Both the position numbers and the translations under genes were made by a program. Under the pieces are notes generated by a model, which was not told the DNA's origin, ran no database searches, and saw only the letters and a list, made by a program, of their open reading frames with translations. This document shows, in pieces, positions 17,178 to 29,022 of a stretch of DNA of 29,022 nucleotides. This DNA is from Promethearchaeota archaeon (lineage in GTDB: Archaea; Asgardarchaeota; Lokiarchaeia; Sigyniarchaeales; SOKP01). The stretch's first letter is position 1. Each line of letters starts with the position of its first letter. Location of the stretch: contig JAHLWP010000042.1 of assembly GCA_019057865.1 (NCBI GenBank), positions 1 through 29,022 on the forward strand. The letters run 5' to 3'.

Positions 17178-18788
17178 CTATTTAATATAAATTGGTTGAA
17201 GCCCTGTTTGAAAATGACGTAATCTGAGTTTGGCACCTCGAGATATCTTTACTTTAGGGATTTTATCTCGATTATAATATAATTCTGTTATTGCTGCTAC
17301 AGCATAATCTATATGTTCATTTCCATATAAATTTCTAGGAATTGCAAACCTTACTAAGTTTAGGATTCCTTCTCTTTGTTCAGGAGTTTTTTTATCCCAT
17401 TCAAAAGCAAACGGACCTAATTCACAAGCTCTAATCCCATAATGTCTTAGGAGTTCAATCGTAAAACCAACTCCCCCAAAGTCTCCGGTTTTTATATTAG
17501 TCCCCTCGAAAAATTTATCCATATTTAGGTATACTGCATGTCCCCCAGCAGGTAGAATTACAGGCAATCCATTAATTGCTAATTTTTGGGCAAAGTTCCT
17601 TACCTGCATTATTCTTTTTCTTAACGAATTTTGATGAATAGTTTCATAGAGACTTGTAGCTAGGGCCATTATATCTCGCCCACTTAAGCCCCCGTATGAA
17701 TCATTCCCAAATGTAAGTATTTGCTTTTCTTTTAATTTAATTCCAATATCGTCTTCAACTGAGAATTTTTGATGAAACATACCTCTATCTTTAAAGAACA
17801 ACCCTCCTCCAATGTTTGCCATTCCTTTTTTAAAGCTAATGGTGAAGCCGTCCACATAAGAAAACATTTCTCTCACGATACTTGGAATAGTTTTATTCTT
17901 ATACCCATTTTCAAATTCTTTAATAAAATTGGCATTTTCAGCAAATCTGCAAGCATCAAAGAAGAGAGGGATATTATATTTTTTGGCAATTTTATTAACT
18001 TCTTTAATATTACTCATCGAAACTGGTTGACCAGCAGCAGTATTATTAGTAATTGTTATATAGATTAATGGAATAGATTCTACTGATTTTTCTTGAATAA
18101 GTGTTTCTAATGCTTTAACATCCATATTCCCTTTAAATGGATTTCTAATATTCATCTCATCATAAGGAAAATCATCTAAAAGATTAGCCGAAAAAAAATT
18201 TATAGGAATGATACCATTAGCATTAATATTTGCTTCAGTAGTATCAAAATGGCCATTATTAGGTATAAAATATTCTTCTTCTCGATTTCTTTCCTTTAAT
18301 ATTGGGGCTATGGTCGAAAAAAGTAAATGTTCAGCACAGCGACCCTGGGGAACGATAAAAGCATTGGGGCGCGAAAGTTGGCTAACTCCACCGTTAACAA
18401 ATCCTCCTTGATAATCTGTTATATAAAGCTCATCCATCAATTTTTTAATATTAGTTTCACCAGAAAGAACTAAATCTATAGAATGTTTTGGTTTATCTCC
18501 TCTTTCAAAAGTGTCTCTAATGGCCTCAAGAAGAACATAATAACCTTTATTACGGGCATATGATTCATCTCCATGAAATAGTGCAGACCATTGTAAATCT
18601 GTCATTGTCCCAGAGCCAGAATCTGATAAAAAATCTACGAAAATTAAATCTGCTGGAAATGAGAACATATTATATTCAGTTTTTTTAAGCGCGTATTCAC
18701 GTTGTTCTTTTGTAACCTCTTTTATTGTTCTAACAACTAAAGGCTTATTTGCAGGAATCGCAACTCCTAATTCATTTTGAGATTTCAA
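17178..18788 (-). CDS. tnaA: Tryptophanase (tryptophan indole-lyase), PLP-dependent beta-eliminating lyase
   Basis: DFLSDSG, GDESY, QGRCAE, TNNTAAGQPVSM, DACRFAENA, PLP-lysine SFKK, YGGLSGRD, GGHAVY. HFDTT, CELG and LRHF match tryptophanase rather than tyrosine phenol-lyase (YFTTT, MERG, LRFF). TTG start with AGGTGA SD. Confidence 0.9.
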   Translation of the reverse strand: MKSQNELGVAIPANKPLVVRTIKEVTKEQREYALKKTEYNMFSFPADLIFVDFLSDSGSGTMTDLQWSALFHGDESYARNKGYYVLLEAIRDTFERGDKPKHSIDLVLSGETNIKKLMDELYITDYQGGFVNGGVSQLSRPNAFIVPQGRCAEHLLFSTIAPILKERNREEEYFIPNNGHFDTTEANINANGIIPINFFSANLLDDFPYDEMNIRNPFKGNMDVKALETLIQEKSVESIPLIYITITNNTAAGQPVSMSNIKEVNKIAKKYNIPLFFDACRFAENANFIKEFENGYKNKTIPSIVREMFSYVDGFTISFKKGMANIGGGLFFKDRGMFHQKFSVEDDIGIKLKEKQILTFGNDSYGGLSGRDIMALATSLYETIHQNSLRKRIMQVRNFAQKLAINGLPVILPAGGHAVYLNMDKFFEGTNIKTGDFGGVGFTIELLRHYGIRACELGPFAFEWDKKTPEQREGILNLVRFAIPRNLYGNEHIDYAVAAITELYYNRDKIPKVKISRGAKLRLRHFQTGLQPIYIK

Positions 18789-18971
18789 AACATTTCACCT
18801 AGTTTGAAAATTCAAACCAATTTTTTAATTATTTTGGTATTATCTGAATGGTGATTCATAATTTAGAAATATTATAAGAAATATTCTAAGGCATTTAGAT
18901 TAATTTTTCAATGTTTAAAAATTTAAATATAACTAGTTATTTATGAAGAAAGCAGATTATTGAAGAATCGA

Positions 18972-19502
18972 TTAAAAGATTGATTTTTCAATCATTATTC
19001 GACTTATCTTTTTAAAGACTTCTTCTACATTTTCACCAGTTTTAGATGAACACTCAATAAAATCAAAAAAATTATTCTCCTTGGCAAAATTTTTTCCTTC
19101 TTCTTTAGATACTGTTCTATTTTCTTCAAGATCGAATTTAGACCCTAATAGAATTGTAGAAACTTCCTGACTATATTCTTTATTGGCTTTAATAAATGCA
19201 GCTAACCACTCATTTAACGATTCAAATGTTGGATATCTGGTAATATCATATACAAATATGGTACCTTGTGCCCCAATAACAGCACTAGGTAAAAGAAATC
19301 TGAATTTTTCTTCTCCGGCAAAATCCCATATTTGTAAAGATATTTTATTTCCATCAAGTTCAAGTTTTTTCAAATAAAAATCCATACCAATTGTTAATTG
19401 ATATCTTTCTTCGAAAATTCCTGTTAAATATCGATTAGTTAGAGTTGTTTTACCAACTCCTCCATCTCCAAAAATACATACTTTATATTTTGTATAAGCC
19501 AT
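18972..19502 (-). CDS. Rab-like small GTPase
   Basis: G1 GDGGVGKTT, RabF1 TIGMDF, RabF2 SLQIWD, G3 DFAGE, FVYDIT, G4 GSKFD, G5 ECSSK. Confidence 0.93.
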   Translation of the reverse strand: MAYTKYKVCIFGDGGVGKTTLTNRYLTGIFEERYQLTIGMDFYLKKLELDGNKISLQIWDFAGEEKFRFLLPSAVIGAQGTIFVYDITRYPTFESLNEWLAAFIKANKEYSQEVSTILLGSKFDLEENRTVSKEEGKNFAKENNFFDFIECSSKTGENVEEVFKKISRIMIEKSIF

Positions 19503-19727: not shown

Positions 19728-21419
19728 ATGGAGTTACCAGATTATATAAAAAATCAGTACTGGAAGGATTATTTACCTCCAGGAATATCTTTAGAAATCG
19801 AGATTCCAGAAGATATCTCTTTAGTTGAGATTTTTGAAAAAGGTGCTAAAGAATATAGCGATAATATAGCAATGGATTATTATGGAAGAGAATTTACGTT
19901 TAAAGAAATGGACAATTTAACAAGAAGATTTGCCAGTGTCTTATTGAATCTAGGTCTAAAAAAAGGAGATGTTGTTGCTCTATGGTTACCAAATTGCCCA
20001 CACTTTAGCATTTGTTATTTTGCTACATTAAGTCTTGGTGCAACCTTAACAGCTATTAGCCCTTTGTTTATTGCGAGAGAAATGGCTTATCAAATAAAGG
20101 ATTCAGGTGCTAAATTTCTAATAATGATTGATAGATTTTTTCCTCAATATAAACGAACTAAAGATGAGTTACCATTAGAAAAAGTAATTCTTGTTAATGT
20201 TGAAGGTAAAACTCCCGATATTCCTGAAGATGACAAAATTATCCATTTTAATACCTTAATGGATCAAAATCCCGAACCTATCAATGATTTTAAAATCGAA
20301 ATTAATCCTAAAGAACATATAGCTGTTATTCAATATACAGGAGGAACAACAGGTTTACCTAAAGGAGCAATGCTTACGCATTATAATATTATTGCAAATA
20401 TTTATCAAATGAAGCAAATTTCCGATTATATGAGAGAGGTATATCTTAAAGAAAATTTCATAAGTCTTTCAGTGCTTCCATGGTATCATATTTATGGGCA
20501 AACATGTGAACTTGCTCAAGGTCCTTTATTTGGTTCAAAAGGAATAATAATGGCTACATTCGATATCCCCAAAATCCTTGAAGTAATTCAGAAGCACAAA
20601 CCAAATTTAATGCTTGGAGTACCAACTATGTTTATAAATCTCCTAAATTATCCCCAGAGTAAAAATATAGATTTTTCTTGTTTAAAATATGTAAATGTTG
20701 GAGCAGGAGCTTTACCTACAGAATTATTTAAAGCGTGGGAAGAAAAGACGGGTTTTGCTATGGGAGAAGGCTATGGGTTATCAGAGACAAGTCCAACAGT
20801 CACAAATTCTCCACCTTGGGCAAGAAAAAAATTTGGAAGTTGTGGTCATCCAGTAGCAAACACTTTAGTAGGTATTGTGAATGAAAATTTAGAATTTTTA
20901 CCTATTGGTGAAGCTGGAGAACTTGTGGTTTCAGGTCCCCAAGTAATGAAAGGTTACCATAATAGACCAGAAGAAACCAAAAAAGTATTCTTTGAAGCGG
21001 GTGGATATCGTTGGCTTCGAACTGGAGATTATGCCAAACTTGATGAAGAAGGATATATATTTTTACTTGATCGTATTAAGGATATGATAAAGTACAAGGG
21101 ACACAGTGTATATCCGAGAGAAATTGAGGAAATTTTATATGAACATCCAGCTATTTTGGAATGTGGGGTAGTTGGAGTACCTGATCCAGTAAAAGGAGAA
21201 GAAATATTGGCTCATATAATACTTAAGCCAGATTATAGAGGTAAAGTTACTGAACAAGAAATTATTAATTGGACAAAAGAAAATATGGCAGCATTCAAAT
21301 ATCCTAGAATTGTAAAATTTGTACGCAGTTTACCTAAAAGTGCTGTTGGAAAAGTATTAAGACGAGTTATTAGAGAGAAAGAAGCTAAAAAAGCAGCAAA
21401 AAAAAAATTAATAAAATAA
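19728..21419 (+). CDS. fadD: Long-chain fatty acid-CoA ligase (FadD/LcfA family)
   Basis: YTGGTTGLPKG AMP-binding loop, EGYGLSETSP, GPQVMKGY, WLRTGD, DRIKDMI, LPKSAVGKVLRR. Confidence 0.93.
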   Translation: MELPDYIKNQYWKDYLPPGISLEIEIPEDISLVEIFEKGAKEYSDNIAMDYYGREFTFKEMDNLTRRFASVLLNLGLKKGDVVALWLPNCPHFSICYFATLSLGATLTAISPLFIAREMAYQIKDSGAKFLIMIDRFFPQYKRTKDELPLEKVILVNVEGKTPDIPEDDKIIHFNTLMDQNPEPINDFKIEINPKEHIAVIQYTGGTTGLPKGAMLTHYNIIANIYQMKQISDYMREVYLKENFISLSVLPWYHIYGQTCELAQGPLFGSKGIIMATFDIPKILEVIQKHKPNLMLGVPTMFINLLNYPQSKNIDFSCLKYVNVGAGALPTELFKAWEEKTGFAMGEGYGLSETSPTVTNSPPWARKKFGSCGHPVANTLVGIVNENLEFLPIGEAGELVVSGPQVMKGYHNRPEETKKVFFEAGGYRWLRTGDYAKLDEEGYIFLLDRIKDMIKYKGHSVYPREIEEILYEHPAILECGVVGVPDPVKGEEILAHIILKPDYRGKVTEQEIINWTKENMAAFKYPRIVKFVRSLPKSAVGKVLRRVIREKEAKKAAKKKLIK

Positions 21420-21459: not shown

Positions 21460-22881
21460 TTATTCGAATTTCTTAGATTCCAGAAATTTAGCCCGTTCAG
21501 TTAATATCTGTTTTATGTTTTCTCTATCACTTGGAAACCATTTCAATGCTATTAGCCAAAGTATAACACCAGGAACAATACATAAAACAACAATTAAGAC
21601 AGTAATTTGGTAATTTGTACTTGTGTAAGCTAAAAGAATTCCGCATAGTAGAGGTCCTATTCCACGCCCAAATTGTTCTAAAAATTGATTCCAGGAAATT
21701 ATTTGCCCTTGAGCTTCAGGTAAATTGATCTGTTGAATTATTGGACTTTGATTTACTAAATATAAAGAAAAAATAGATCTAGAAGTAAAAAATAAAGCTC
21801 CCATCACCCACATAGTTGGAAGGGACATTAAAAAACCAATATTTTTACCTTGTTCAGGAGTTAAATGAACCCAAGGAATAAAAAAGAAGAGAGCAAAAGT
21901 AAATAAACCTCCTATTATAGCAATAACAATTATAGGTAACCTTCTCACTGGATCTTTCAAAGCAATTTTGTCACTAATTCTTGATAAAAATATTTGTCCT
22001 ACTAATCCACCAGTTAAACCAAAAAAAACCATAAACACTCCTACTGAAAATGGAGCAATATTTATAGGTGGATTTTGAACGTAATTTAATATTAAAAAAG
22101 TAAGACTGCTCATAAGAATACAAGTAAATATTCCCTCAATAAGAGCCACAAGATTTGTTTTACTGAGCATTGTCTTATGCATCATTTCTCTATCAATCTG
22201 AAAATCATATTCAATGTTAGAGTCTTGCAGGATATGAAATAATTCTTCTTGCTGGGCACCTCTTTTAGGTTCTTTGTTATGAATTGCAAAGATGATACCT
22301 CCTAAAAGAATGAATACTCCTATACCCCAAAAAAATTCTCTCCATAGACCATTTTGAACTAAATAGGTTGCTATTAACCAACCGATTATATTTGTTGTAG
22401 AACGTACAATTTCATATACCCCAAAAAATCGAGAACGACGATCTCTAGCAACAACATCGTTTGATAATGAAATTACAGCAGGCCAAGTACCCCCTGAAAA
22501 AAATCCAAAAAGGGCAATGAAAGTAAAAAAGTACCACCAAGTATTAACTTCACCTCCTTTAATAGCAAAACCTAGCATAAACATTGAGATCCCCCTAAAG
22601 AGAGAGATTATGATTATAATTTTCTTTCTAGAGTATTTATCAATAAGTCGACCAAAATATAGCCCAGCAAAAGAAGAACTCCAAGATAAAGTTGTATAGA
22701 GAATACCCATTTCTAAAGCATGAATATCCGCTGGATCATTTGGCCAAATAATTAAAGCAAGGGGAACTACAAGTACAATTATTGCACCATAAGCTATACT
22801 TTGGAACCCATTTAATAGGTATAATGGCCAAAAGATTTTATTGAAAGATTTTTCAGAGTTTACTTTATCATCGTTAGCCAT
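21460..22881 (-). CDS. Major facilitator superfamily transporter
   Basis: About 12 TMs; motif A GRLIDKYSRK; second-half SRISDK; EPKRG after TM6. Confidence 0.92.
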   Translation of the reverse strand: MANDDKVNSEKSFNKIFWPLYLLNGFQSIAYGAIIVLVVPLALIIWPNDPADIHALEMGILYTTLSWSSSFAGLYFGRLIDKYSRKKIIIIISLFRGISMFMLGFAIKGGEVNTWWYFFTFIALFGFFSGGTWPAVISLSNDVVARDRRSRFFGVYEIVRSTTNIIGWLIATYLVQNGLWREFFWGIGVFILLGGIIFAIHNKEPKRGAQQEELFHILQDSNIEYDFQIDREMMHKTMLSKTNLVALIEGIFTCILMSSLTFLILNYVQNPPINIAPFSVGVFMVFFGLTGGLVGQIFLSRISDKIALKDPVRRLPIIVIAIIGGLFTFALFFFIPWVHLTPEQGKNIGFLMSLPTMWVMGALFFTSRSIFSLYLVNQSPIIQQINLPEAQGQIISWNQFLEQFGRGIGPLLCGILLAYTSTNYQITVLIVVLCIVPGVILWLIALKWFPSDRENIKQILTERAKFLESKKFE

Positions 22882-23020: not shown

Positions 23021-23533
23021 CTAACAACAGCCACCATGGTCATGGTTGTGATTATGATCGTGTCCACAACTACACATGTTTGGTGTATCAGGTTCACAAT
23101 TGGTTTCAACAATTTTAATTTTAAAATTTAAAACCTTACCTGCCATTGGATGATTTAAATCGATAATAACATCATTTTCCTCAATTGACTTAATTGAAGC
23201 AAGCATTTGACCTTGTGGTCCCATAACCATCAGCATCATACCTGATTGGGGTTCAGGACCTTTGGGAAATTGATCTTTTGGAACTCTTTGAGTGAGACCT
23301 TCCTTGTATTCTCCATACGCTTCGGAAGGTTTAAGTTTAATTGTATATTCTTCACCAGGTTCTTTTCCGATAACAGAGTTATCGAATCCCGTAATTAATT
23401 GCCCTTCTCCTACTTGAAACTTTAAAGGAAGCCCTTCGTTTTTTTCTGTACTATCAAAAACTGTCCCATTATCAAAAGTTCCTAAGTATTTAACTTTTAT
23501 CCATTCTCCTCTTTTAACTGCCATTCTAATCAT
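23021..23533 (-). CDS. slyD: SlyD-type FKBP peptidyl-prolyl isomerase with His/Cys-rich tail (start may be the Met of MAVKRG)
   Basis: VKYLGTFDNGTVFDST, LKPSEAYG, IDLNHPMAGKVLNF; tail CSCGHDHNHNHDHGGCC. Confidence 0.93.
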   Translation of the reverse strand: MIRMAVKRGEWIKVKYLGTFDNGTVFDSTEKNEGLPLKFQVGEGQLITGFDNSVIGKEPGEEYTIKLKPSEAYGEYKEGLTQRVPKDQFPKGPEPQSGMMLMVMGPQGQMLASIKSIEENDVIIDLNHPMAGKVLNFKIKIVETNCEPDTPNMCSCGHDHNHNHDHGGCC

Positions 23534-24142: not shown

Positions 24143-24832
24143 ATGGTTTTAAAAGAGTGGAAATCATGGTCATTTATTTTTATAATGGTTGGTAGTCTCC
24201 AATTTATCGTTTTAACACTCATCGCAATGTTCTATTATAAAGGGGGGACATACATTGACCAATCAACGTCAGGATATTTGTTCTGGAATAATTTGTTTAG
24301 TGATTTAGGTAGAACTATCGCACACTCTGGATTGACTAATAGAATTTCATTCATCATATTTACAGTAACACTTTTAATCTGGGGTTTTTCTCATATTCCT
24401 TTTTATATTGCATTTTCATTTATTTTAAGAGAAAATAAAAAACAAAAACAGCTTAGTAAGGCAGGATCTATTTTAGGTGTTCTTACAGGAATTTCATATA
24501 TGGGGATTGCACTTACACCATCAGATATTTTAAATGATGCCCATAATTTTTTCGTTCTTATGGCATTTTCACCTATATTTGTTAGTATTATTATATATTC
24601 TATTGTAATTTACCATAACAAATCCTATTCTAATTTTTACTCTTACGTTCTGGTAATCTCAGCAATAATTCTAGCATTATTTTATATTTCACTGCTTCTA
24701 ATGCCAGATAAGTCGATACAAATAGAATTATTTATTCAAGTATTAGGACAGAAAATAGCGATGTATACATTATTGATATCTGGTTTTATTCAAGGTTATG
24801 GAGCATGGAAGTATTTAGATAGAATGAAATAA
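24143..24832 (+). CDS. Five-TM membrane protein, DUF998-like
   Basis: TM1 followed by GY...NNLFSDLG; H after TM3 (DAHNFF); alternating TMs. Confidence 0.7.
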   Translation: MVLKEWKSWSFIFIMVGSLQFIVLTLIAMFYYKGGTYIDQSTSGYLFWNNLFSDLGRTIAHSGLTNRISFIIFTVTLLIWGFSHIPFYIAFSFILRENKKQKQLSKAGSILGVLTGISYMGIALTPSDILNDAHNFFVLMAFSPIFVSIIIYSIVIYHNKSYSNFYSYVLVISAIILALFYISLLLMPDKSIQIELFIQVLGQKIAMYTLLISGFIQGYGAWKYLDRMK

Positions 24833-24918
24833 TTATACACTTTTAGATAAAAAGTATAAGAATAGTGATAACTTATATTATAATTATATTTATAATAAAA
24901 AATTAAAGCGAAATTGTA

Positions 24919-26220
24919 ATGAATTCAAAACTAAAAAGAATAATTACTATGGTTTTTGGTATTTTTTTAATACTTATTATATCATTCTATTATCCAAATT
25001 TCTATTTTAATCAAGAACGGAGCAATAATGAATTATTAATTCCAGAGGATCATAATCCAAAGATTGCTGCTGGCGATTGGGATAATGAAATAAAAAAAAA
25101 TGTTGGACCCGAACCCACAAGCGTTTTTGTAGGAGATGCTAATAATGATGGGTATAATGATATCTTAACTGCTAATTGGGGTGGTAATGCTTACTCTGTA
25201 ATACTATGGAACCCAGTTAATAATGATTGGGATTTTCATTTTTATAGAGTAGTTGGAATACGACCATATAGTGTTTTTGTCGAAGATGCTAATAATGATG
25301 ATTTTAATGATATTGTAGTTTCTAATTCAGCAGATCGAGATGTTTCAATAACGTTATGGAATGAAACTGAAGGAGATTGGGATGACCAAATAAGGAGATC
25401 CGTTGGATGGTTGCCTAGAAGTGTTTTTATCGGGGACGCTGATAACGATGGATTTAATGATATTGTAACTTCCAATGCTAATGATAATAATGTTTCTATT
25501 CTACTGTGGAATGGAACAGATTGGGACCCCGAGATTACAAGATCAGTTGGAGTAGGTCCTTATAGTGTGTTCGTTGGAGACGCAAATAATGATGGATTAA
25601 ATGATATAATAACTGCAAATATACTTGACGCCACTGTTTCAATACTGAGCTGGAACACAACCCTTGTAGATTGGGATTCTCAGTTAACAACTTATGCCGG
25701 TTCCACTCCTCGTAGTGTTTTTGTTGGAGATGCAAACAACGATGGATATAATGATATTATAACTGCTAGTCAAAGTGGTGAATATGTTTCTATACTTATA
25801 TGGAATCCACTTTTTAAAAATTGGAGTTGGCCATACTTTTTAAGTAATATAAATGGTGCCTATTCTGCTGTTATTGGTGATATAGATAACGATGGCTTAA
25901 ATGATATAGTAACAACAGAAACACATAGTAGTAGGATCGCAATATTCTTATGGGACATAAATTTAGGGAATTGGTCTACCCGAATATCAAAGAATGTTGG
26001 AAGTGGTCCTGAAAGTATTTTTATAGGAGACGCTAATAATGATGAATATAATGATATTGTTATTGCTAACCGATGGGATGATGAAATTTCTATATTTTTA
26101 TGGCATGAGAAAACCAAAAAAGAACAAGTTATTCCCAGTTACAACTTAGCAATTATATTAGGTCTCTTATGTATAATATCCATAATCTTAATTAAAAAAC
26201 GACTTAAATCAAATATTTAA
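24919..26220 (+). CDS. Cell-surface FG-GAP/VCBS repeat protein (7-bladed beta-propeller) with C-terminal Loki-CTERM-like anchor
   Basis: N-terminal signal/TM; seven ~50-aa repeats P.SVFVGDANNDG.NDI.TAN; IPSYN-TM-KKR C-terminus. Confidence 0.9.
   Translation: MNSKLKRIITMVFGIFLILIISFYYPNFYFNQERSNNELLIPEDHNPKIAAGDWDNEIKKNVGPEPTSVFVGDANNDGYNDILTANWGGNAYSVILWNPVNNDWDFHFYRVVGIRPYSVFVEDANNDDFNDIVVSNSADRDVSITLWNETEGDWDDQIRRSVGWLPRSVFIGDADNDGFNDIVTSNANDNNVSILLWNGTDWDPEITRSVGVGPYSVFVGDANNDGLNDIITANILDATVSILSWNTTLVDWDSQLTTYAGSTPRSVFVGDANNDGYNDIITASQSGEYVSILIWNPLFKNWSWPYFLSNINGAYSAVIGDIDNDGLNDIVTTETHSSRIAIFLWDINLGNWSTRISKNVGSGPESIFIGDANNDEYNDIVIANRWDDEISIFLWHEKTKKEQVIPSYNLAIILGLLCIISIILIKKRLKSNI
25102..26103 (+). 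repeat. Seven ~150-nt intragenic FG-GAP-type repeats
   Basis: Units start near 25102, 25252, 25402, 25546, 25696, 25846 and 25996, each with a D.(N/D)ND..ND Ca-binding loop. Confidence 0.9.
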
Positions 26221-26423: not shown

Positions 26424-27212
26424 ATGAATAACGGGAATCAATTAATAAATCATCTTCGATCTGGGTCTCTTCGTGGAATCATTTTTGATTTCGATGGAAC
26501 TCTACTCGATGTTAGAGAACCTCTTGAAAAGTCAATAAATGAAGTCTTTACTTATTATAAGGTTGATGTTGATATGGATACTACTTTTCAAGAGATAGGT
26601 GCATTGTTAGAAACCATTCAAGGGTATCCACTCCCTAAAGTCTTATTAGAGTCTTATGAGATATTTAAACACATTACTGCACTTGAAGGTATAACTTATT
26701 TCAAACAATTGAGAATAGCAATCAAAACTTTCTCAAAATATTTAGAATATTCTAAAGATGCTACCTTATATCCCGGAGTAAAACCAATATTGAAAAAATT
26801 TAAAAAATCTAGTGATCTTTATATTGTATCCCATAATAAAACAGAAACTATTATGAATCACTTGGAGAATGAAGGAATAGATAAATTCTTTAAAGGTGTA
26901 TATGGGAGCGATAAAATTCCTGTTCAGAAACCAGATCCAATGGCACTTCAACCACCTATTGAAAATTATGAAACACGAAAGAGAAATGAATTTTTAATGA
27001 TTGGCGATATGCCATCAGATATTATGGCTGGTCGAGAAGCTGGTTTTTGGACAATTGGAATTTCAAGTGGGGTAAGTAAAAAAGAGATTCTGGCTGAACA
27101 AAGACCAGATTTATTAATTAATTCATTAGATGATTTATTAAAATTAGTTGAGAAAAAAACAATATCAGAATCGAATATTAAAAAATCTATAAAGATAAAA
27201 TCTGAGGAGTAG
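26424..27212 (+). CDS. HAD-superfamily phosphatase (subfamily IA, Gph-like)
   Basis: Motif I IFDFDGTL, II VSHN, III KPDP, IV IGDMPSD. Confidence 0.92.
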   Translation: MNNGNQLINHLRSGSLRGIIFDFDGTLLDVREPLEKSINEVFTYYKVDVDMDTTFQEIGALLETIQGYPLPKVLLESYEIFKHITALEGITYFKQLRIAIKTFSKYLEYSKDATLYPGVKPILKKFKKSSDLYIVSHNKTETIMNHLENEGIDKFFKGVYGSDKIPVQKPDPMALQPPIENYETRKRNEFLMIGDMPSDIMAGREAGFWTIGISSGVSKKEILAEQRPDLLINSLDDLLKLVEKKTISESNIKKSIKIKSEE

Positions 27213-27218
27213 AAATTT

Positions 27219-28883
27219 ATGCAACTTGAAAAGAAAGGATATCAAATAGCAGAAGAGCTTGAACGAAAGAAATCCACTGAACATAAGATGCAAGAAGAGC
27301 TAAAGTACCAAAAGCGCCATCAAGATTGGACTTATAAAATTATGAAATTCAACCCAATCGACCCTTTGAATGACCTTTATCGGTACATCATCAAAAGGCT
27401 AGATTTGAAGAAAATTGAAGGACGACTCCAATGGTGGGCTGCGTATATTTATATAAAACAAGCTGCCCGTATGTTCTGGAACTTCAAAGCAGAATATCCG
27501 AAGGGGAACATATTTCCAGAATATGGTCCGGGCATTCTCGTCGCCAATCACGAGTCACACATCGATCCCTTCTTCTATGGGGCCGCTTGCCATCGCCGTA
27601 TCCGCTACATGAGCAAGTTGGACAATTTTAAGACCCCCATAGTCAGAACGCTCTTCAATAATCTTGGAGCTTTCAAAGTAGACCGTGAAAATCCCGATCG
27701 GGCATGGGAAAAAGCAAAGGAAATTATCCGAGGAGGAGAATGGGTTGGAATATTTCCTGAAGGTACTCGTAGTACTGAGGAAAATGGATTTGCCTTAGGT
27801 GAATTCAAAACTGGTGCTGTTAGACTGGCAATTGAAATGGATGTACCAATCGTTCCGATGGCTGTAGTTGGTTCAAGGAATGCTTTATCTAAAGGTAAAC
27901 TAGTTATGAAACCAACTCAAGTAATTGTAAGAGTAGCCGATCCAATTTATTATCATGATTATGATATTAATATGATATCATATGAAGATATAAGAAGGTT
28001 AACTGATGAGTTAAGAACCATAATCTTTGAGCTACGTGAAGGTACTTATGGGAAAACAGAGGAAGAACTTTCAATAGGTTCACTTGAAGATGTTGAGAAA
28101 GAGCCAAAATTTAATTTTAAGACTTATTTAAAAGATATGGGAAAGGGAGTATTACAACTCATAGATGATTCATGGTATGTTCTTTTGAGAAGTCTAGAAG
28201 TGTTTGGCTTACGAGAACAATTTCAAAAGATTGTACAATGTTTCTCAGGAGATTTAGTTTGTGGTTGGTCTGACCTTATGATGCCGTATAAAGTAATCGA
28301 CTTTGAAAAATACATCCCACAAGAAGGTGCTGCGCTTATATGTCCAAGTCATAATTCAGAATGGGATGTACTTTTACTGGCTGCAAGTATGATACATCAT
28401 CCACCAAGGCGAGTAATGTGGCAGATGGCAAAACAATCGTTATTTAAAATTCCACTCGTTAACGCCTGGGTAAGAAATCATCATGCATTTCCCTTAAAAC
28501 GGGGAGAGCATGATGTAGATTCATTTAATTTTGCTAAAGAACTTCTTTCTTCAGGAGAAATTGTATGCACTTATCCTGAAGGAACTACTAATCTTGGAGG
28601 TGGTGAACTTTTAGAAGGTCACACTGGTCCCATGCGATTGGCAATAGAAACACAAGTACCTATAATCCCAGTTGGTATAACAGGGACAGAAACTACATAT
28701 CCTAAACATGCGAAAATGCTGAAATTTTACAAAGGTCAAATAATAAAAGCAGGGCCACCATTTATGGAACATCAACAGTATTGGGGTAAGCCAGTACCGG
28801 ATTATGATGAACTTAAACGATTAACTGACAACATGATGGATAGGATCCGAGATTTACTTGTATACGATACGCCTGATACGTGA
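27219..28883 (+). CDS. plsC: Tandem two-domain PlsC-family (lysophospholipid/glycerolipid) acyltransferase
   Basis: Domain 1: NHESHID (HX4D), GAFKVDR, FPEGTRS, VPIVP. Domain 2: SHNSEWD (HX4D), AFPLKRG, YPEGTT, VPIIPVGI. GAGGAG SD. Confidence 0.92.
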   Translation: MQLEKKGYQIAEELERKKSTEHKMQEELKYQKRHQDWTYKIMKFNPIDPLNDLYRYIIKRLDLKKIEGRLQWWAAYIYIKQAARMFWNFKAEYPKGNIFPEYGPGILVANHESHIDPFFYGAACHRRIRYMSKLDNFKTPIVRTLFNNLGAFKVDRENPDRAWEKAKEIIRGGEWVGIFPEGTRSTEENGFALGEFKTGAVRLAIEMDVPIVPMAVVGSRNALSKGKLVMKPTQVIVRVADPIYYHDYDINMISYEDIRRLTDELRTIIFELREGTYGKTEEELSIGSLEDVEKEPKFNFKTYLKDMGKGVLQLIDDSWYVLLRSLEVFGLREQFQKIVQCFSGDLVCGWSDLMMPYKVIDFEKYIPQEGAALICPSHNSEWDVLLLAASMIHHPPRRVMWQMAKQSLFKIPLVNAWVRNHHAFPLKRGEHDVDSFNFAKELLSSGEIVCTYPEGTTNLGGGELLEGHTGPMRLAIETQVPIIPVGITGTETTYPKHAKMLKFYKGQIIKAGPPFMEHQQYWGKPVPDYDELKRLTDNMMDRIRDLLVYDTPDT

Positions 28884-28904
28884 AAATTCTGAGGAATTTT
28901 TGAA

Positions 28905-29022
28905 ATGGAAACAAGCGAGCAAACAACTAAAAAAAAGATAAAAGTTGGAATACCAAGAGCCCTTCACTTTTATAGGTATTATCCTTTTTGGAAAAAGCTA
29001 CTTGAAGAATTAGATGTAGAAA
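28905..29022 (+). CDS. 5' part of a DUF2229 / acyl-CoA dehydratase activase-related protein, truncated by the window end
   Basis: Not in the ORF track. ATG at 28905 with GAGGA SD translates METSEQTTKKKIKVGIPRALHFYRYYPFWKKLLEELDVE, matching the KVGIPRAL..Y..YPFW signature. Confidence 0.75.
   Translation, partial: METSEQTTKKKIKVGIPRALHFYRYYPFWKKLLEELDVE

Follow-up and report, generated by a model that had tools for sequence, protein, structure and literature searches.

A PlsC-DUF2229 gene cluster conserved in Lokiarchaeia-type Asgard archaea and its possible role in making fatty-acid-derived ether lipids

Eukaryotes have bacterial-type fatty-acid membranes, as opposed to the isoprenoid ether lipids of their archaeal ancestors, and the origin of this difference is an open question. 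The end of a contig from a Promethearchaeota archaeon (Lokiarchaeia) raises it at the level of single genes: what would a bacterial-type acyltransferase be doing in an archaeal operon, between a phosphatase gene and the start of a gene of the DUF2229 family? The stretch of DNA analyzed, called the window here, is the whole of contig C24 (JAHLWP010000042.1; 29,022 bases), one of the 87 contigs of an assembly (GCA_019057865.1, below G000) that is estimated to be 99.67% complete and 5.15% contaminated. Our analysis identified the three genes at its end as the 5' part of a cluster that is conserved among Asgard archaea of the Lokiarchaeia type. We put at roughly one in two the probability that this cluster serves lipid synthesis by acylation followed by ester-to-ether reduction, its middle part probably lying in an assembly gap in this genome.

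The last 2.6 kb of the window hold, all on the forward strand, a HAD-IA type phosphatase of 262 amino acids as first gene of the operon (26424-27212), a double PlsC-type acyltransferase of 554 amino acids (27219-28883), and the 5' end of a DUF2229 protein that we call Red1 (ATG at 28905, read up to 29022), of which only 39 codons are visible because the contig ends there. The intergenic gaps are 6 nucleotides (27213-27218) and 21 nucleotides (28884-28904) long. A Shine-Dalgarno-like motif, TCTGAGGA, is present in exactly two copies in the 29-kb window, both on the forward strand: one at 27201-27208, ending 10 nucleotides ahead of the PlsC start codon, and one at 28888-28895, ending 9 nucleotides ahead of the DUF2229 start codon. 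As two or more copies were also obtained in 21 of 100 shuffles, the count alone is within chance and only the placement is notable. The open reading frame calls and the motif search confirmed the layout of three co-oriented genes with a ribosome-binding motif at both junctions that had been described in a first-pass annotation of this DNA, and the three family assignments made there were upheld by Pfam scores over the cut-offs, even for the 39-residue DUF2229 stub (PF09989, 33.2 bits for a cut-off of 29.4, E 5.4e-8). The ratio of non-synonymous to synonymous substitution (dN/dS) is 0.04-0.16 for the three genes, which shows purifying selection, and the close homologues that come with a source name carry Promethearchaeota, Lokiarchaeota, or other Asgard names.

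The HAD phosphatase matched PF13419 (HAD_2) with 90.9 bits (E 1.4e-25) and has the DxDxT nucleophile of motif I as DFDGT at residues 22-26; its dN/dS against a relative, G179, is 0.08. No specific equivalog cut-off was reached, the best NCBIfam models (phosphoglycolate phosphatase and PpaX) scoring far below theirs. The acyltransferase matched PF01553 with 189.2 bits in two stretches (cut-off 23, E 3.2e-56) and TIGR00530 with 160.9 bits (cut-off 102.95). Reading of the motifs bore out the claim that it has two complete catalytic domains, each with HX4D and PEGT. The N domain (Pfam match at 27513-27866) has its HX4D motif at 27549-27566 (HESHID, residues 111-116) and its PEGT motif at 27756-27767 (FPEGTRS at residue 180), and the C domain (28305-28679) has them at 28350-28367 (HNSEWD, residues 378-383) and 28575-28586 (YPEGTTN at residue 453). 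Further family blocks are found in the N and C halves, FKVDR and FPLKR of the FxxR type as well as VPIVP and VPIIP. The halves are 31% identical to each other (E 5e-21) and correspond to two separate adjacent PlsC genes of the Asgard family f3, and the N domain aligns to the PlsC of Thermotoga maritima (PDB 5KYM) with an E value of 3.8e-13. No hydrophobic span was found in the double protein, for which the top Kyte-Doolittle mean over 19 residues was 1.47. A PF01553 search of the assembly returned the double PlsC only and missed a small PlsC-like gene on contig C15, the only other PF01553-like gene of this genome, which has K-x4-D in place of H-x4-D. The same family had no match in any of four archaeal control genomes. 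PF01210 (GpsA) was tried as a marker for glycerol-3-phosphate supply and was uninformative, as it matched in all 14 control genomes searched.

To place these genes in a wider context, the surroundings of Red1 were compared in the 80 best Asgard loci from an alignment scan with Red1; their titles are Asgard names or "uncultured archaeon," and no bacterial loci are among them. A double PlsC gene lies less than 300 nucleotides upstream of Red1 in 72 of the 80 loci and farther upstream in five (it was not found in three), and a HAD gene is found upstream on the same strand in 57. What follows Red1 varies. In 20 loci it is Red2, a diverged DUF2229-like protein of 394-444 amino acids, with or without an ATPase gene and a small PlsC gene (all three in 11). 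In 10 loci it is a gene that we call BBD (accompanied in nine by a gene called p474), and in 25, one of them also counted under BBD, the start of a FAD_binding_4-DUF2229 cassette; both modules are described below. Nothing was recognized in 17 loci with less than 1.5 kb of DNA left or in eight with at least 1.5 kb left, and the last type of flank, found once, is that of contig C78.

The full order by Pfam in genera g2, g10, and g11 is HAD, double PlsC, DUF2229 (Red1), DUF2229-like (Red2), BcrAD_BadFG ATPase, and small PlsC. In family f3, it is one or two PlsC genes, Red1, Red2, and the ATPase. The ATPase of these relatives is a separate protein of about 340 amino acids, of the BadF/BcrA/HgdC type, and a small open reading frame of 64 codons sits between it and the small PlsC-like gene. 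G175 has the complete set in this order (L069:5555-12289). Sixteen further loci from families f2 to f7 all have Red1 together with Red2, and 15 have the ATPase (the remaining locus ends inside Red2); a PlsC gene lies upstream of Red1-Red2-ATPase in 14. The linkage of PlsC and DUF2229 genes, whose conservation the earlier annotation had staked its proposal on, thus holds in Asgard archaea. Within the window's own family, Red1 was found in 121 of 134 genomes, Red2 in 108 of 135, and the BBD fusion in 42 of 135, G000 not being one of these; since the genomes are kin and many are incomplete, such counts describe spread and not independent events.

Several variants and neighbors of the cluster were also noted. 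In families f5 to f7 (L060:2465-13122 in G128, of f7; L173-L178), the acyltransferase has three domains and about 876 amino acids and the HAD protein has 488 amino acids; the G128 cluster also holds a LarA-like gene and a radical SAM gene. Genes for Gtr1/RagA-type GTPases adjoin the cluster in two f3 loci (L058:5174-6112 and L059:4280-5233) and lie near Red1 on C78 (L003:3174-4373), a neighborhood that may be a coincidence. Contigs of a metatranscriptome run (X18, an RNA library) match HAD and the 5' end of PlsC of G179 (L051:6247-7042) with 90-95% likeness. None of them bridges the junction by 31 letters, and DNA carry-over is possible; expression of HAD and of the beginning of PlsC in a relative is weakly hinted at by these contigs.

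What might such a cluster do? We infer that the double PlsC builds acyl glycerolipids and that the HAD enzyme dephosphorylates an intermediate. The double PlsC would load a glycerol phosphate or lyso-lipid backbone with two fatty acyl chains, taken from acyl-CoA or a different acyl donor, and the HAD enzyme would take a phosphate off an intermediate. The ATPase would then feed low-potential electrons to the Red1/Red2 pair, which would reduce the acyl ester bond to an alkyl or alkenyl ether. This ester-to-ether function of Red1, Red2, and the ATPase is inferred by analogy with PlsA/PlsR and Ger of bacteria. Passages of PMC12838417 and PMC13159169 describe PlsA/PlsR as the anaerobic plasmalogen synthase, with CPE1194/1195 of Clostridium perfringens and single-gene PlsA in Enterococcus faecalis and Lactococcus cremoris, made of the regions Act1, Act2, Red1, and Red2, and Ger as the glycerol ester reductase of Thermotoga maritima (Tmari_0479). 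According to the relevant parts of PMC13159169, Ger consists of two PF01869 domains, a PF09989 domain, and short PF09989/PF06050 pieces, and a "BBD" core (two BcrAD_BadFG domains plus DUF2229) is kept in all alkyl-ether producers.

The analogy was examined with the full-length Red1 that could be read from contig C78 of the same assembly (L003:206-1267). It is a standalone protein of 353 amino acids that matches PF09989 with 158.3 bits (E 2.9e-46); its match to PF06050 (HGD-D) has 28.8 bits and covers residues 274-332 only, a C-terminal stretch of about 60 residues, and not the full length of a HGD-D protein. C61, C99, and C287 are invariant in 13 Asgard orthologues and 35 diverse relatives. 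An AlphaFold model (pLDDT 90.5) gave as best Foldseek matches the (R)-2-hydroxyisocaproyl-CoA dehydratase HadBC, the double-cubane protein DCCP, and the benzoyl-CoA reductases BzdNO/MbdON (E 3.6e-10 to 3.6e-7, probability 1.00, TM about 0.5). On the basis of these fold matches, we assign Red1, as modeled, to the substrate-side subunits of the superfamily of ATP-driven [4Fe-4S] radical enzymes.

For the comparison with PlsA and Ger, fused bacterial proteins chosen by architecture (a Listeria protein of 1475 amino acids and a Paraclostridium protein of 1282, both from records of a plasmid collection, and long representatives) were used as stand-ins for verified PlsA/Ger sequences. The 1475-residue protein matches the ATPase over 312-634 (35% identity), Red1 over 666-983 (24%), and Red2 over 1035-1230 (25%). 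In a quick maximum-likelihood tree of 36 rows (SH-aLRT supports in parentheses), where the same stand-ins took the place of PlsA and Ger, all DUF2229-type rows stand apart from the HGD-D proteins of G000 (100). Two groups make up its Red1-type clade (99), one of the fused type (93), with the fused proteins of bacteria and the BBD domain of Asgards, and one of the split type (80), which includes the Red1 of the window; the Red2 proteins form a clade of their own (99). A grouping of Red1 with the HGD-D dehydratase/reductase genes of its own genome, of the kind that would have spoken against the first-pass proposal, was not seen, and Red1 had no tblastn match to these genes at E 1e-3. The proposal of a split PlsA/Ger-like reductase fared less evenly: a split set of Red1, Red2, and ATPase does occur in relatives and is collinear in content with the fused PlsA/Ger architecture, while Red1 itself falls in the sister clade.

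Closest to Red1 outside the Asgards are split bacterial proteins. Omnitrophota and Thermoanaerobacter are the names attached to its representatives with 39-41% identity, and a Monoglobus record holds a split Red1, Red2, and ATPase trio (31%, 34%, and 53% identity) with no PlsC or HAD neighbor. For WP_003870530.1, the Red1 homologue of T. ethanolicus JW200 annotated as "hypothetical protein," data given in PMC13159169 show a transcript that is higher in stationary phase than in late exponential phase by log2 4.38, and higher than in mid-exponential phase by log2 5.61.

These relationships leave room for a model where Red1, Red2, and the ATPase carry out some other ATP-driven radical reduction or dehydration, of a hydroxyacyl or unsaturated acyl thioester or of another lipid group, and PlsC merely transfers the product, so that the system would still be linked to lipids. 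The closest solved folds belong to 2-hydroxyisocaproyl-CoA dehydratase, DCCP, and BzdNO/MbdON, in a superfamily with several chemistries, and Red1 lies outside the fused PlsA/Ger-type clade. Its top 150 representatives are either standalone proteins (128-382 amino acids) or fusions of 690-770 amino acids with no assigned function, and the Monoglobus trio does without a PlsC neighbor. To our knowledge, however, PlsA/PlsR and Ger are the only proteins with DUF2229 whose function has been tested. The 158 bits of Red1 for PF09989 also stand against 28.8 bits for PF06050 on the last 60 residues only, and the association with genes for glycerolipid acyltransferases is seen in six families. We regard this model as unlikely, if still one to be reckoned with.

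The case is more complicated in the genome of the window itself. Searches of the G000 assembly for Red2, BBD, p474, and the FAD cassette found none of them, and none of its four BcrAD_BadFG genes, which lie elsewhere beside HGD-D genes, exceeds 38% identity with the cluster ATPase. The first-pass annotation had proposed to look for activase and dehydratase-like genes in the adjacent DNA; the relatives have Red2 and the BcrAD_BadFG ATPase there, and in the G000 assembly, Red2 and the cluster ATPase were not found. Contig C15 offers an explanation. It starts inside the 64-codon open reading frame that follows the ATPase in G179 (82% identity over 34 amino acids), and its next gene is the small PlsC-like one, 92% identical to that of G179 (Pfam E 2.5e-7). 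In all four relatives examined, Red2, the ATPase, and the small PlsC are followed by C15-like DNA, and the orientations of C24 and C15 agree with the order C24, gap, C15. Since C15 starts just past the position where the ATPase ends in relatives, the missing sequence, namely the remainder of Red1 together with Red2 and the ATPase, probably falls, to judge from the contig ends, into an assembly gap that separates C24 from C15. The 5'-open frame at the start of C15 was considered as the end of the ATPase gene and rejected, as it is the end of the small open reading frame. Farther along, C15 (L162:1-9458) carries genes for a GNAT acetyltransferase, a 465-residue protein with no known family, an AAT/CBAH-type Ntn hydrolase, a FAD oxidoreductase, and an EamA transporter.

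Contig C78 (L003:1-15629) adds a second context. Its start is a 92%-identical copy of window positions 28700-29022, which runs on into the full Red1 gene and then into unrelated genes: after 350 nucleotides come a 222-residue protein with no known family, a 298-residue protein, and a Gtr1/RagA GTPase of 399 residues with a Roadblock domain. One contig of G177, on which a remnant of p474 is left, carries the same flank downstream of Red1. Because of this common flank, C78 is, as far as the sequences tell, a real strain variant in the same bin and not a chimera. Elsewhere in G177, on a different contig, Red2, the ATPase, and the small PlsC are all present. Contigs of four sequencing runs were also compared with the G179 locus. 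In X1 and X2, which are possible source runs, the contigs over HAD, double PlsC, and Red1, up to L051:9404, have a depth of 194-219, and those over BBD and p474 reach a depth of 13-16 only. Depth by itself does not tie a gene to a population, and this applies to whatever follows Red1 in the lineage of the window.

Two other modules are found downstream of Red1 in part of the loci. BBD is a gene of 985 codons, with two ATPase domains fused to DUF2229 like the core of PlsA, that directly follows Red1 in some members of the genus (in G179, BBD and the p474 gene together span L051:10019-14404). Among the 43 matches listed, nine have in-frame stops (TGA or TAA), which could be a sign of decay or stand for selenocysteine. 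Directly 3' of BBD in relatives lies p474, a gene of 474 codons with no family match and weak similarity to Red2-type proteins (E 7e-4 and 0.005), whose position in the tree is unreliable because of its long branch. The other module (L054:10319-15092 in G246) consists of a FAD_binding_4-DUF2229 fusion of about 806 amino acids, an ATPase, and a Red2-like protein of 444 amino acids. Where this module follows Red1, its DNA is 95-100% identical in almost every locus, against only 72-79% for the Red1 genes of these loci, which suggests, at the sequence level, a recent lateral spread of the cassette. Several copies have one in-frame TGA. Contigs tend to end inside the cassette, the beginning of which is met at contig ends in about 30 of the 80 loci (L075-L154), and it is one likely cause of the contig breaks that are frequent at the Red1 locus in relatives. 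Read-through scanning of a 6.8-kb G184 spacer against Pfam yielded no match.

One could thus imagine that the reductase part is decaying in this lineage, Red1 being an orphan left after the loss of its partners, with only HAD and the double PlsC still cooperating. The unrelated gene 350 nucleotides after Red1 on C78 and the same flank with its p474 remnant in G177 would fit such a loss, as would the in-frame stops in BBD, the Red2 remnants and inserted cassettes found downstream of Red1 in many loci, and the absence of Red2, BBD, and p474 from what was found in G000. The dN/dS of Red1 between C78 and G177 is 0.06, however, and in G177 the genes for Red2, the ATPase, and the small PlsC persist elsewhere. 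The start of C15 just past the end of the ATPase and the frequent breaks at the locus point instead to an incomplete assembly. On balance, decay appears quite improbable.

Upstream of the operon, other genes of the window were considered as parts of the same system. A long-chain acyl-CoA ligase-like gene (FadD, 19728-21419) had been proposed to supply acyl-CoA. It lies 5 kb from the operon with opposite-strand genes between and was a neighbor of the cluster in none of 20 loci and one of 80, with short flanks, so that the proposed tie has to be given up as a conserved one. A major facilitator superfamily (MFS) transporter gene at 21460-22881 on the reverse strand (PF07690, 1.5e-39) is a recurrent upstream neighbor in relatives, where MFS matches upstream of HAD were counted by eye in 18 of the 80 loci, and its place in a lipid system is a candidate one only. 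The rest of this part of the window (17178-19502, 23021-23533, and 24143-26220) encodes a beta-eliminating lyase, a Ras-family small GTPase, a FKBP isomerase with a His/Cys-rich tail, a DUF998 membrane protein, and a FG-GAP repeat protein.

These neighbors bring to mind lipid salvage or remodeling in the manner of LplT-Aas, in which the MFS protein would import lysolipids or fatty acids from bacterial partners, the acyl-CoA ligase would activate them, and the double PlsC would re-acylate, so that a reductase would be unneeded. The acyltransferase domains do match the acyltransferase part of the Aas/LplT-Aas model PRK08633 (4.8e-31), the MFS protein weakly matches the transporter part of PRK06814 (2.2e-8), and both the recurrence of MFS genes upstream of HAD and the presence of the ligase gene would fit. 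The best matches of the MFS protein are nevertheless generic antiporter models, with all scores far below the cut-offs, and FadD is not a conserved neighbor. Salvage would also give no reason why PlsC is packed so tightly, and in a conserved way, with Red1, Red2, and the ATPase, and we consider it hardly probable.

Acylation followed by ester-to-ether reduction is the reading that we retain, and a number of facts have to be set against it. The discussion of PMC13400652 reports only archaeal lipids from a cultured Lokiarchaeon. The split form of the reductase is so far a putative enzyme known from its genes. Red1 groups, with a SH-aLRT of only 80, with Clostridia and Omnitrophota homologues in the split-type clade and not with the clade of fused PlsA/Ger architecture. 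The nearest bacterial trio, that of Monoglobus, lacks a PlsC, and Red1-Red2 also occurs with no PlsC in two loci of Asgard families that are farther away (f13 and f18). The assembly of the window shows no Red2 and no orthologous cluster ATPase, and in the natural variant C78 (and in G177, with the same flank), Red1 is followed by unrelated genes. Finally, PlsY was not found in G000, which leaves the first acylation without its standard enzyme; this and the K-x4-D motif of the small PlsC-like gene would fit a double enzyme doing both acylations, without being proof of it.

A broader reading, which we hold to be somewhat less likely than not, is that Lokiarchaeia-type Asgards make fatty-acid-derived ether glycerolipids, plasmalogen-like or alkyl, through a dedicated and vertically conserved cluster in which PlsC-type enzymes would build the esters and the split Red1/Red2/ATPase set would reduce ester to ether. 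If this is true, membrane lipids that are not isoprenoid could be made by a functioning pathway in the archaea most closely related to eukaryotes, and one locus would exchange several paralogous reductase modules, among them the BBD-p474 genes and the FAD-fused cassette. The components have been noted singly in print: PlsC in Lokiarchaeota (in sections of PMC6737245), PlsC and PlsY in Loki- and Thorarchaeota (in sections of PMC6737245 and PMC13400652), and "Ger homologues" in Lokiarchaeota (in parts of PMC13159169). No paper describing the operon-level linkage of PlsC and DUF2229 in Asgard archaea was found, the supplements of PMC13159169 included, in a search that left about 1.7 million PubMed Central articles and the subscription journals outside. 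This conserved operon-level coupling of PlsC with a DUF2229 gene offers a concrete, clonable set of candidate genes for fatty-acyl and ether lipid making in Asgard archaea. The window itself adds less to it, because only the 5' part is present and the partner genes are unassembled.

How does the Asgard cluster compare with known systems? Within the PlsC family (PF01553, TIGR00530), the acyltransferase is typical in its profile scores over the cut-offs and in having the HX4D, FxxR-type, PEGT, and VPI(V/I)P blocks in both halves. It differs in joining two complete domains in one chain of 554 amino acids, in its archaeal host, and in its C domain, where PEGTT replaces the PEGTR of the family and the Arg is lost; the Asgard double PlsC is a fusion of two adjacent genes that are still separate in family f3. 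With the dehydratases and reductases of the HadBC, HgdAB-HgdC, BzdNO, and DCCP type, the cluster shares the fold of the Red1 model, a HgdC-type ATPase partner, and three conserved Cys in Red1. Red1 differs from HadBC, HgdAB, BzdNO, and DCCP in the short C-terminal extent of its PF06050 match, in the lack of tblastn similarity to the HGD-D genes of its genome, in its separate clade, and in its neighbors, which are acyltransferases and not fermentation genes. The split bacterial cassettes of Monoglobus, Thermoanaerobacter, and Omnitrophota are the nearest by sequence (31-41% for Red1, 34% for Red2, and 53% for the ATPase) and have the same gene order and split architecture; the one examined, from Monoglobus, differs in lacking PlsC and HAD as neighbors. 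PlsA/PlsR and Ger, in turn, share with the Asgard set the BcrAD_BadFG ATPase, the DUF2229 domain (PF09989), HGD-D-like pieces, and a lipid context, which in Asgards is implied by the PlsC genes. The differences are an identity of 24-27%, a BBD core that is absent from the Red1 gene of the window (standalone, 353 amino acids), and the place of Asgard Red1, a putative ether-forming subunit, in a sister clade. In content, the Asgard Red1, Red2, and ATPase correspond collinearly to the regions Red1, Red2, and Act2 of the fused 1475-residue homologue, and they come as three separate proteins with a single ATPase domain where the BBD-type fusion has two.

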